A stretch of DNA of 64,000 nt from Escherichia coli O157:H7 (GTDB taxonomy: Bacteria; Pseudomonadota; Gammaproteobacteria; Enterobacterales; Enterobacteriaceae): assembly GCF_013167455.1 (NCBI RefSeq), contig NZ_CP038328.1; one strand, 5' to 3'. Position numbers: made by a program. Below are positions 48,001-51,000 of the stretch, one piece after another; positions within the stretch are counted from its first letter, which is position 1; every line of letters begins with the position of its first letter.

Positions 48001-51000
48001 TTACCTCATTACTCCAAAGAGGTAATATTTCAGAGTACAGTAAGACTCACTTAAACTGAGGACCAGTACGAATTACAATGGTAAAAACACACCTCATAGA
48101 ATTGAGTTTAAGGAAGTACCATTCAATCACTTACAGGAAGTAATCTGACATTCACAAAAGCCAGTATCGGGTAGCCACAGGCAACACCGCTATTAATACT
48201 TCTGTACCATTAAGTAAAAACAGCGACCCAGCTTAAGGCCTCTACAGATATTTAACTTCACCATAAAAATGATGGTATACAGACCATACCCCACACACCA
48301 TAAGAATATTATTTCATACAGGAAAGATTATATTTTTTCATACCTATAAACTGTAACAGAGCCATAACATACTCTAATAGTGTTCCGGTACGTAACCAGT
48401 GTTAAGTGCGTACAAGACAACATAACAGATCACATAACTTCCACTAATAATACTAATTAACCTAAATTATTTATTGAACACGAAAACAATGAAGGCCCCA
48501 CCTCACCTCAGACTAAAGCCGACAATATCCTGAGCAACACTCTATCCAATAGTAAATAGTGGTTACACCAGTTATATTTACTGACTGACCTGTACCAGAG
48601 TTTTCTAATACAACGCTGACATGGTAAAGACATTAGTCTCCTCCGCAAGTAGCAGAGGAGACTATATGTACTCAACGATTAAGTCGTTCAGAGGTCAAAG
48701 TTAGGTGCGACACACAACGTTTTTCCCTCAATAACCGGTACAACTCTGTTTTGTTCATACAGTAAATCCAGTAACCAGTTGATTTTATCCTTTTTCCGGA
48801 AACGGTTCGGACCACGCTGTAAAATGTCATTTTTTTTCATACAGAGGATCCCCTTCTCAATACAATAGCTTTTTATCCAGTTGAAAAGTTCAAGCTCCTC
48901 TGGAATGAGTCGCACAGGTACGGTCAGGGCAGAGTTGTCAAAAGTTAACGGATTAGACAACCGCACATACTCATTACCGTACCATATTGCTAATTCTCTC
49001 GCCATTTCTGCAGTGTAAGGGGAAATCTCCCCCTCTTCACCGCTCGAATGGTAAATAAGTCCTGCCAGTCTTGCCATATACTCTGCATTTTTAGCAGCAT
49101 ATTCCCGGCAATGTCTTAAAGGCCCCAATCCCCCCAGCTTCGATTCCACATCATTGTAATAATCCGTCCAGATTCTGGCAGCCTGAGGAGAAAAGTGAAG
49201 GCAACGTCGTTCACCACTCATCGCCAGACTTTCATCAATAAGCTCATTGATCATTATCCTTGTCCCCTGCGTTGATGTTGGTTGACACATCAAAAACCTT
49301 GCATGATGTCCTGACGTTTTCACAATTTCTTTTTTTCGCGTACAAAAACCTTTGTGGTAAACATCAGGCTGAATCATCACCGATATCGTCAGTCTTGGCT
49401 CCTTCAAATTAATTCCGGGAGATGATTTCCTGTCGATGAAAAGAGAACCTCCATCCCACAAAGTGTTAATAATTCCCAGTTTACTCATGGCCCGGCTGTC
49501 AAAAATTACCCCCCCTTCACTGGATACAAGAGCAAAAGAGCGATTGCTATCGGAGTAATATTTTAACATTCCCTCTATCGTTGTCTCATTAAAAATTGTT
49601 CGACGTATCTGCGGCGGAACAGGAGGTTTATTCAGATGCGTTTCAAGCTCTGATTCTGTTGCCTTGTAATCTTTACCGGCACGAATCTCTTTATGAAATT
49701 TTGATTCCAGCGCTTTTTGTTTTTGCTCCCATATTTCCTTTTCTGTACTGTAATTCTCAACCAGTTTCGCGTATTCATCCGCCAGGGCTTCATCCCTGAG
49801 ATAAAATGCTTTCATAAACACTTTATCCACGGTCGTTTTCCTTTCACCGGAATCAGCCAGAATCAGAGAGTAAAGATTAACAGGCCCATGTAAATTTCCA
49901 GGTCTGCACACGTCAATCTGATTCTGACAGGCAATTGAGATCGCTGTTAATGCGGATGTTGCCACCATAGCCAAAGGTGCCTGTGTATTTTTTTGAGTTT
50001 CAATTATTGCATTTCTCACCAGCGGTGGTAGTGCATATATCGGATAAGGATTTTCTGGTGCAAGTAAGCACATAAAAGCCTCTCTTTTCATTAATGGGTT
50101 AGTAAAATAGCAGCAAATCCCGCTACAATAGCGAAAATAGCTGCTATTCAGACCTGATGCTCTGAGAAATACAGAGCATTTGTAGATCTGATGTTTAATA
50201 AACCGATAAGGTTAATTCAGTGAAGACTGTATTATTCACCACGAAATATCATTCATATTTCTCATTCTTAATACCTCCGGAAATTATTTCACTAATACCT
50301 TTCCCCCGGTCTTTTCCCTTTCTCCAGAACCATAGTGTAAATATTAACGGCCCCACGTAAATTTCCGGGACTGCATACGTCAACCTGATTCTGACAGGCA
50401 ATTGACATCGCTGTTAATACTGACATTGCAACCAGAGTCAGAGGTACTTGTTTATTGTATTGAGCTTTAATTATTGCCTTCCCTATCATTGATGGTCATG
50501 CATATACTGAATACGACATATCCGGTTTGATGTAAGGCATAAATGCTTCCTTTTTCGTAATACGTTTCGGTTATAGCAGCAATTACCGCTACAATAGCGA
50601 CAATAGCTGCTCTTTCAACAATGAATGCTGGAAATTCTGTTTATCAATTAAACTTCTGGCTAAATTGTTCTTATGCTTCTTTTTCCTCCTGAGGTGATCA
50701 CGTGATGACAAAAACTTATCTGCTCATGGTCATATCTGAAGAAAGCGTATGTCTCACTTCGTCATTAACACCTTTGACTGCTGATCTGGCAGGTACAGTA
50801 TGTAAAGTAAGCCATTCGTCAATAGCTGATGAACGCCAGCCCACAGAACCACTACCAAGACGTACCGGCCTGGGGAAGGTTGCATCGTAGTATTTCGATA
50901 ACGGATTCATTTTTTCGTAAATTGTCGAACGAGATATACCTAACAATTGGCTCAGTTCAGGCATCCGTAAGATGCGTGAAGGAGTCCTGCAGTGTCCGGA

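Follow-up and report, generated by a model that had tools for sequence, protein, structure and literature searches.

The integrase-proximal core of a CP4-57-like island in Escherichia coli O157:H7 carries two copies of a palindrome that our comparisons of related loci show to be the local form of a conserved GCTATT hexamer array. The DNA that we analyzed (contig NZ_CP038328.1 of assembly GCF_013167455.1, 64,000 nucleotides (nt), referred to here as the window in its entirety) harbors the same int-alpA-yfjI-yfjJ module as the CP4-57 island of E. coli K-12, and one palindrome, pal1, lies directly upstream of its full-length yfjI gene. The other, pal2, belongs to an old tandem duplication of this intergenic region and the yfjI 5' end. 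As detailed below, we tentatively favor a reading in which the array serves in the replication of the excised island.

A GCTATT hexamer array associated with alpA-yfjI-yfjJ modules

Both palindromes (Table 1) follow the pattern AGCAGC-N6-CGCTA-N3-TAGCG-N6-GCTGCT, which has exactly two matches in the 64 kb, where none is expected and where not one of 100 shuffled sequences yielded any. The first-pass annotation of the window, made from its sequence without database searches, had recognized both copies but had set the second at 50564-50601, about 10 nt too far to the left. GCTATT hexamers are present in pal1, which is found 36 nt upstream of the yfjI ATG codon. When relatives of YfjI were sampled from one genome per species and their upstream regions were read, a common layout, GCTATT-N3-GCTA-N3-4-TAGC-N3-AATAGC, became apparent, with two direct and two inverted hexamers that are spaced by 9 bp and separated by a centre of 3-4 nt. 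This 9-bp spacing is found in 72 of 73 distinct instances, a number that has to be read with the search pattern in mind, as it partly imposes the spacing.

The array accompanies alpA-yfjI-yfjJ modules across Gamma- and Betaproteobacteria and is also present in metagenomes. K-12 and 16 enterobacterial genera have it in the form GCTATTTCyGCyATTAATAGCGGAATAGC, at a distance of 25-45 nt upstream of yfjI, and the YfjI proteins of these K-12-type loci are only about 40% identical to that of the window. Perfect forms, for instance GCTATTyCTGCTA-N4-TAGCAGrAATAGC, are present in Pseudomonas, Shewanella, Serratia, Morganella and Rugamonas, where they are located upstream of alpA or just past yfjI. An unbiased palindrome search uncovered homologous variants (GCGATT..GCGA and others) directly after yfjI: GCGATTCCATGCGA in loci L070 and L082, GCAATTCATGCGA in L060, GCTAATTCTGCT in L039, and GGTAGTTGCGA in L065 (the L numbers designate the loci of our comparison). 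Distant copies are situated 4-125 nt past the yfjI stop codon in several loci. In L060 (4175-4219), a palindrome of the GCAATTCATGCGA type with 20-bp arms is flanked by the 3' ends of two convergent genes, yfjI and a gene for a MobA/MobL relaxase.

Searches with the motif alone lead back to the same gene neighborhood. Among 2.9 million viral contigs, three of the four matches fell within alpA-yfjI-yfjJ modules. In metagenomes, a YfjI open reading frame (ORF) was found in 42 of 80 loci, and in 21 of the 33 loci that offer at least 2 kb of sequence on both sides; many AT-rich look-alikes are among the loci without it. The position of the motif in the metagenomes varies: it resides 70-210 nt upstream of alpA (13 loci), between alpA and yfjI (8 loci), at most 125 nt after yfjI (8 loci), or 1.1-1.9 kb after yfjI and then upstream of yfjJ or alpA (6 loci).

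Two properties of the array speak to what has been under selection. Within a 31-sequence alignment, 89% of the cells pair between the arms and 10 of 18 pairs have changed on both sides, values that were reached by none of 500 shuffles and far exceed those of slid controls. These two-sided changes indicate that the symmetry is selected, spacer triplets included (TCC/GGA, TCT/AGA, CCT/AGG, TTT/AAA, CCAT/ATGG). At the same time, the hexamers are near-invariant across very long distances, which pure structure would not require, and the motif is conserved among proteobacterial classes while its flanks cannot be aligned. The hexamers moreover behave as repeat units: L023 and L055 possess three units per arm, a Stenotrophomonas locus (L033) has six hexamers in mixed orientation that form no overall palindrome, and in L070 and L082 an identical T-to-G change affects the outer and the inner repeats. 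Collectively, the near-invariance of the hexamers and their behavior as units point to DNA that a sequence-specific protein recognizes at several sites. The central nucleotides of the palindrome vary freely among lineages (TTG, TTAA, CTAA, CCGA, TCAG, TTTG).

Literature searches by gene names and motif strings retrieved no description of the GCTATT palindrome. It is new as an element, of the kind represented by initiator or operator repeat arrays, whereas the island family as such is already known, for example from Pseudomonas tmRNA islands with intY, alpA and Gp2-like genes (PMC12595487).

An old tandem duplication provides the second palindrome

The alignments show that a segment of about 466 bp was duplicated long ago in a CP4-57-like island. 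It covered the last part of an AlpA-class gene and the intergenic palindrome and, from yfjI, the first ~95 codons. A repeat search of the window detected direct repeats at 49857-50059 and 50324-50526 (203 nt, 77% identity) and at 50075-50148 and 50541-50614 (74 nt, 74% identity), which corresponds to a period of 466-467 bp and to copies arranged head-to-tail in the same orientation. In the pairwise alignment, ~49803-50160 and 50282-50626 are homologous without interruption, starting shortly upstream of the palindrome and ending near codon 95 of yfjI. Full-length yfjI continues from the downstream copy; the upstream copy abuts the intact alpA gene. A partial tandem duplication that includes the upstream palindrome had been proposed in the first-pass annotation, and the homology of the two regions, continuous and beyond chance, bears this proposal out. 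As a consequence of the duplication, the island holds two such sites 466 bp apart.

The comparative data portray this duplication as old and fixed, not as a recent event. Its layout (query 50150-50720, spanning filler, yfjI fragment and pal2) is shared by 1337 of 5426 complete E. coli genomes, some lineages being only 79-86% identical. Islands at the thrW site (L002, L003) have the two-copy structure as well (period 467-479), but they carry a different, 75-aa AlpA-class gene, and in L004 alpA, the palindrome and yfjI follow one another undisturbed, in a single copy. The window and L002/L003 cease to be homologous at the switch in AlpA class, about 25 nt upstream of pal2; the regulator/int side was therefore swapped later by recombination. 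A relic of the former neighbor persists next to pal1: the ~60 nt upstream of this palindrome align to the 3'-terminal part of the 75-aa AlpA-class genes of L002 and L004, with scores that 0-4 of 500 shuffles reach, and the duplicated unit consequently started within or just past that gene. A derivation of the whole 143-nt filler from alpA was rejected, since only the ~60 nt nearest to the palindrome are significant and the other ~75 nt have no match.

Judged from its lesions, the duplicated piece of yfjI (yfjI') is a decaying pseudogene that has been damaged in a lineage-specific manner. In the window, codon 15 is TGA and 10 bp have been deleted; in L003, a stop at codon 14 is combined with a 12-bp deletion; and in L002, L089 and L090, 75 intact codons are followed by a stop. 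It is these independent lesions that establish its status, and not our codon-position selection check, which gave no third-position excess with counts that are too small. The second copy of the yfjI 5' coding region noted earlier at 50292-50489 is real: it corresponds to the remaining 65-aa ORF, which matches the first 42 positions of Pfam DUF3987. The ~75-nt filler between yfjI' and the alpA relic contains a mini-ORF that is kept in eight E. coli variants, the only differences being a synonymous AAT/AAC change and a TGA/TAA stop swap.

In three lineages, pal2 is better conserved (0.89-0.95) than its flanks (0.71-0.86), the adjoining dead gene included, and this suggests that pal2 is still in use. 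Its left arm contains a 9-bp unit, GCTATTGTC, of which strain 3059 has four additional copies (L087:~1700-1760) and strain HS13-1 two (L088:~1700-1745); pal2 is thereby asymmetric in these two strains. The duplication event itself is an ordinary evolutionary scar.

YfjI and a possible role of the array in island replication

We read the GCTATT array as the putative origin or helicase-loading site of the excised island, possibly serving as an autoregulatory operator too, and consider this to have somewhat less than an even chance of being correct. YfjI is the most constant neighbor gene of the motif, and the protein models as an MCM-like helicase of superfamily 6 (Pfam DUF3987) with a C-terminal winged helix. 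Its AlphaFold2 model is confident (predicted local distance difference test score of 88.5), and YfjI has the DUF3987 match, the P-loop and an AAA+ MCM-like fold with a C-terminal small domain. A profile search against PDB sequences gave no significant relative, so that the fold comparison alone is informative in this respect. A K/R-N-x-I-x-Q-x-GPN segment of the YfjI winged helix is common to GCTATT-type loci and differs in most others. Some DUF3987 homologues of YfjI are fused to Toprim or PrimPol domains, a DUF3987 protein possesses 5'-3' helicase activity (PMC11724360), and the DUF3987 gene prim is required for the replication of PICMI satellites (PMC10803314).

Under this proposal, the array would be a cis site that is read by the module's own replication machinery. 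Its likeliest reader would be the C-terminal winged helix of YfjI, possibly together with the HUH-type YfjJ protein, and an array just upstream of yfjI may double as an autoregulatory operator. Loci of the K-12 type (L007-L020) contain long T-rich tracts (e.g., TTTTTTTATTTATTTTTTTGTTTTTT) between the alpA stop codon and the palindrome, about 25-60 nt upstream of the motif, that could be an unwinding element.

It is the presence of four hexamers in a palindrome of about 30 bp, next to the gene for a winged-helix MCM-like helicase, that leads us to favor the origin reading, as this arrangement resembles SV40, E1 and SaPI origins. Site II of SV40 and polyomaviruses and the E1 site of papillomaviruses, which a hexameric initiator helicase recognizes through its origin-binding domain, likewise consist of four 5-6-bp repeats, two direct and two inverted, in a palindrome of about 27-30 bp. 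The likeness is confined to the architecture: these viruses are eukaryotic, their helicase is of superfamily 3, the binding domain is unrelated and the repeats are GAGGC pentamers. No relation at the sequence level links YfjI to the self-loading, MCM-like helicases that staphylococcal islands encode (Rep of the SaPI Rep/ori system, Cch of SCCmec). Their two iteron sets flank an AT-rich spacer, whereas the repeats described here form a near-perfect palindrome; moreover, this site is often located upstream of the helicase gene or even of alpA, and replication of the island is something that we only infer.

In satellite phage P4, the C-terminal winged-helix domain of the alpha protein binds repeated octamers at two separate cis regions, and P4 likewise combines int, an AlpA-like protein (Vis) and a replicative helicase-type protein (alpha; ori/crr type I iterons). 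Unlike alpha, YfjI has no primase domain, the AEP-TOTE primase-helicase of the island being encoded by a separate gene; the P4 repeat is unrelated to TGTTCACC found here, where the second site stems from the local 466-bp duplication. Iteron plasmids such as pSC101 and F carry inverted initiator half-sites directly upstream of the initiator gene, an arrangement that could give autorepression. In contrast to these rep operators, many relatives do not have their site upstream of yfjI, and neither a promoter scan, which gave no match above threshold, nor manual inspection revealed a convincing sigma-70 promoter over pal1. A promoter-like match (9/12) does overlap the left arm of pal2, with a match count that is not above the shuffled expectation. 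No helper phage is known for the islands studied here. PICMI satellites share the three-gene core int-alpA-prim, in which prim is the DUF3987 gene needed for replication and AlpA is required for excision (PMC10803314). No PICMI origin is defined in the text searched, and the islands considered here are much larger and contain yfjJ and cargo genes.

Several observations weigh against the origin reading. The motif is mostly found upstream of a gene of the module, a position that equally fits a transcriptional operator, and the link between the winged-helix segment of YfjI and the motif is confounded by phylogeny. In a tblastn search of PLSDB, the YfjI homologues fell only on large plasmids or on mis-labelled chromosomes, and no small plasmid that relies on YfjI as its sole replicon was among the matches. 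Visual inspection of the sequence revealed no marked AT-rich tract around pal1 or pal2. The left-arm expansions of pal2 imply that exact symmetry is not strictly kept, which argues for a looser constraint. Furthermore, well-formed motifs exist without YfjI, YfjJ or AlpA detected nearby, in L135 near ssb, in L145 upstream of a Gp3-like recombination directionality factor gene, and in L149, a 13.7-kb contig in which no yfjI, yfjJ or alpA was detected and whose perfect motif (3245-3274) is located about 200 bp from a tRNA-Thr gene (thrW), just past a cbtA toxin gene and a terminator.

The more far-reaching proposal, that the palindrome is the origin of a widespread replicon of CP4-57-like islands, operating with YfjI, an HUH-type YfjJ and AlpA-triggered excision, and that the serX/thrW lineage has two origins, is a conjecture that we regard as unlikely. 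As a separate observation on yfjI, its match in three E. coli plasmid records (H96, H97, H99) is about 1.9 kb long and split into two to three pieces, which suggests an insertion or an intron within the gene.

Other readings of the palindrome

A protein-binding, operator-like site, as suggested in the first-pass annotation, is a reasonable view of the palindrome, but its assignment to the adjacent AlpA-like regulator is not supported by our comparisons. In such a scheme, AlpA would bind the palindrome and activate or repress yfjI-yfjJ, and also alpA where the site is found upstream of that gene. AlpA proteins are helix-turn-helix DNA binders according to Pfam, K-12 AlpA is annotated as a transcriptional activator, an AlpA ORF is detected in 19 of the 33 motif loci that have flanks of 2 kb or more, and the commonest positions of the motif are 70-210 nt upstream or 41-64 nt downstream of alpA. 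However, the sequence of the site does not track the identity of the regulator in the way expected of its operator: the same motif is found beside two AlpA classes that are only 25-31% identical to each other, and the AlpA of L021, although canonical (55% identical, SRSTIY helix unchanged), is accompanied by a different palindrome. The position of the motif relative to alpA varies (upstream, downstream, after yfjI), and L052, L060, L070, L080, L082, L148, L150 and L161 have the motif without an AlpA hit nearby (2.5-7 kb). In PICMI, AlpA drives excision and leaves satellite gene expression unchanged (PMC10803314). The association with divergent AlpA classes, or with none, provides poor support for a specific AlpA operator, and we deem it unlikely. 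There is no further copy of the motif near int or att in the window, which likewise counts against AlpA; an att-arm or excisionase site was rejected as a general explanation on the same ground, L149 being an exception, and 22 of the 24 loci checked had no tRNA or tmRNA gene close to the motif.

The symmetry of the array might alternatively reflect a hairpin or cruciform that is cut by YfjJ, a double-strand origin from which the excised island would replicate by the rolling-circle mode with YfjI as the helicase. Motifs like the two hallmarks of HUH endonucleases can be recognized in YfjJ: an HxH with hydrophobic residues behind it, invariant in this protein and 26 homologues, and Y-L-A-K, which conforms to their common motif Y-[LMF]-[AT]-K (Y-x-x-K in 96% of homologues). 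The compensatory changes that keep the arms paired, spacer positions included, would fit such a structure, and one class of loci has the motif between yfjI and yfjJ. The centre of the K-12-type palindrome, CATTAATAGCGG (L006:4918-4929), agrees in 10 of 12 bases with CTTTAATAGTGG of the Ff phages (verified in f1, 5759-5829), a sequence that holds the gpII nick site. Nevertheless, the centre is unconserved, and a common nick motif of the kind that marks the double-strand origin of an HUH Rep protein is therefore missing. The Pfam REP_ORF2-G2P matches of YfjJ are weak and below the curated cut-off, and YfjJ is absent within 2.5 kb of the motif in L023, L030, L039, L052, L055 and L060, as well as from 21 of the 33 metagenome loci that have flanks of 2 kb or more. 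A YfjJ nick site is decidedly unlikely in our estimation.

A further reading is an RNA hairpin in the alpA-yfjI transcript that sets yfjI expression, be it by attenuation or termination, as a site for an RNase, or by stabilizing the RNA. Folding favors the sense over the antisense strand by about 4 kcal/mol (-24.6 and -20.3 versus -20.9 and -16.1 kcal/mol, z about -3 to -4), the core has 24 G-T against 9 A-C mismatches, and several distant copies follow the yfjI stop codon at 4-125 nt. Yet the G-T excess derives from only two or three lineages, and E. coli and Betaproteobacteria have the sequence of the stem in common, which structure by itself would not demand. In the search for intrinsic terminators, only part of pal1 was flagged as terminator-like; the U-tract is inconsistent, as no T-run follows the stem in pal2 and most relatives. 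An Rfam scan of 47000-52500 found nothing relevant, the palindromes reaching at best 20-22 bits against a 110-bit cut-off with an unrelated miRNA model. The motif moreover occupies non-equivalent positions in the transcripts, and unit expansions and non-palindromic hexamer clusters exist. We consider an RNA function very unlikely. A neutral scar without current function, in which the palindromes persist by descent or through self-correcting palindrome dynamics, would be in keeping with the dead upstream gene copy and the length polymorphism in the left arm of pal2. It is hard to reconcile with a motif that is conserved across proteobacterial classes amid unalignable flanks, with the compensatory changes, and with a pal2 that is more conserved than the adjoining pseudogene; we give it hardly any credence.

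Genetic context of the palindromes

The annotation relies on RefSeq and on an annotated twin locus, E. coli O157-type genomes matching the window at 100% identity. The twin locus places the region in an island adjoining ycdU, as its integrase-proximal core, and the core genes (int, the AlpA-family gene, the DUF3987/hypothetical fragment, the YfjI-family gene, yfjJ and the AEP-TOTE gene) are all encoded on the minus strand. The AlpA protein of the window matches Pfam Phage_AlpA (E=6e-19) and is 52% identical to K-12 AlpA.

Table 1. Position of the palindromes, the duplicated remnants and the island core genes in the window
Feature	Coordinates	Strand	Details
AEP-TOTE primase + SF2 helicase gene	44789-47173	-	Intact, 794 aa
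yfjJ, inovirus-type Gp2	47304-47867	-	Same module
yfjI, full length (DUF3987)	48688-50073; alternative start 50091	-	
pal1	50109-50145		Minus-strand reading AGCAGC TATTTT CGCTA TTG TAGCG GGATTT GCTGCT
Relic: 3' end of 75-aa AlpA-class gene and its downstream spacer	50150-50222	-	Local alignment
Mini-ORF MRNMNDISW (then stop)	50236-50265	-	Nine codons; GGAGG at 50274-50278; read from sequence
yfjI' fragment, homologous to codons 1 to ~95	50282-50540	-	Alignment, Pfam
pal2	50575-50611		Minus-strand reading AGCAGC TATTGT CGCTA TTG TAGCG GTAATT GCTGCT
AlpA-family gene	50716-51012; ORF reaches 51024	-	98 aa per RefSeq
int	54128-55330	-	

Further features of this region deserve mention. A short palindrome, GTGATCACGTGATGAC, is located directly 3' of the alpA stop codon (50694-50709). 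An AT-rich ORF of 605 aa without a Pfam match (52124-53941) is situated between int and alpA on the opposite (plus) strand, with an IS1 remnant (51235-51927) beside it. In the O157 strain FDAARGOS_293, the gene for the AEP-TOTE primase-helicase is interrupted by IS1203.

Implications for CP4-57-like islands

Islands of the CP4-57 type, with their int-alpA-yfjI-yfjJ module, are among the most frequent integrative elements in Enterobacterales and Pseudomonas, and their cargo comprises defense systems, toxins and virulence genes. A conserved cis element next to the helicase gene of these islands offers a concrete experimental handle on them and a signature with which such modules can be found in genomes and metagenomes. 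The duplication that we describe is chiefly of value as a natural marker of an island lineage and as a natural "two-site" variant of the module. If the proposal of a widespread YfjI-dependent replicon were true, then the serX and thrW lineage present in roughly a quarter of the E. coli genomes would carry a duplicated, two-origin version of it.

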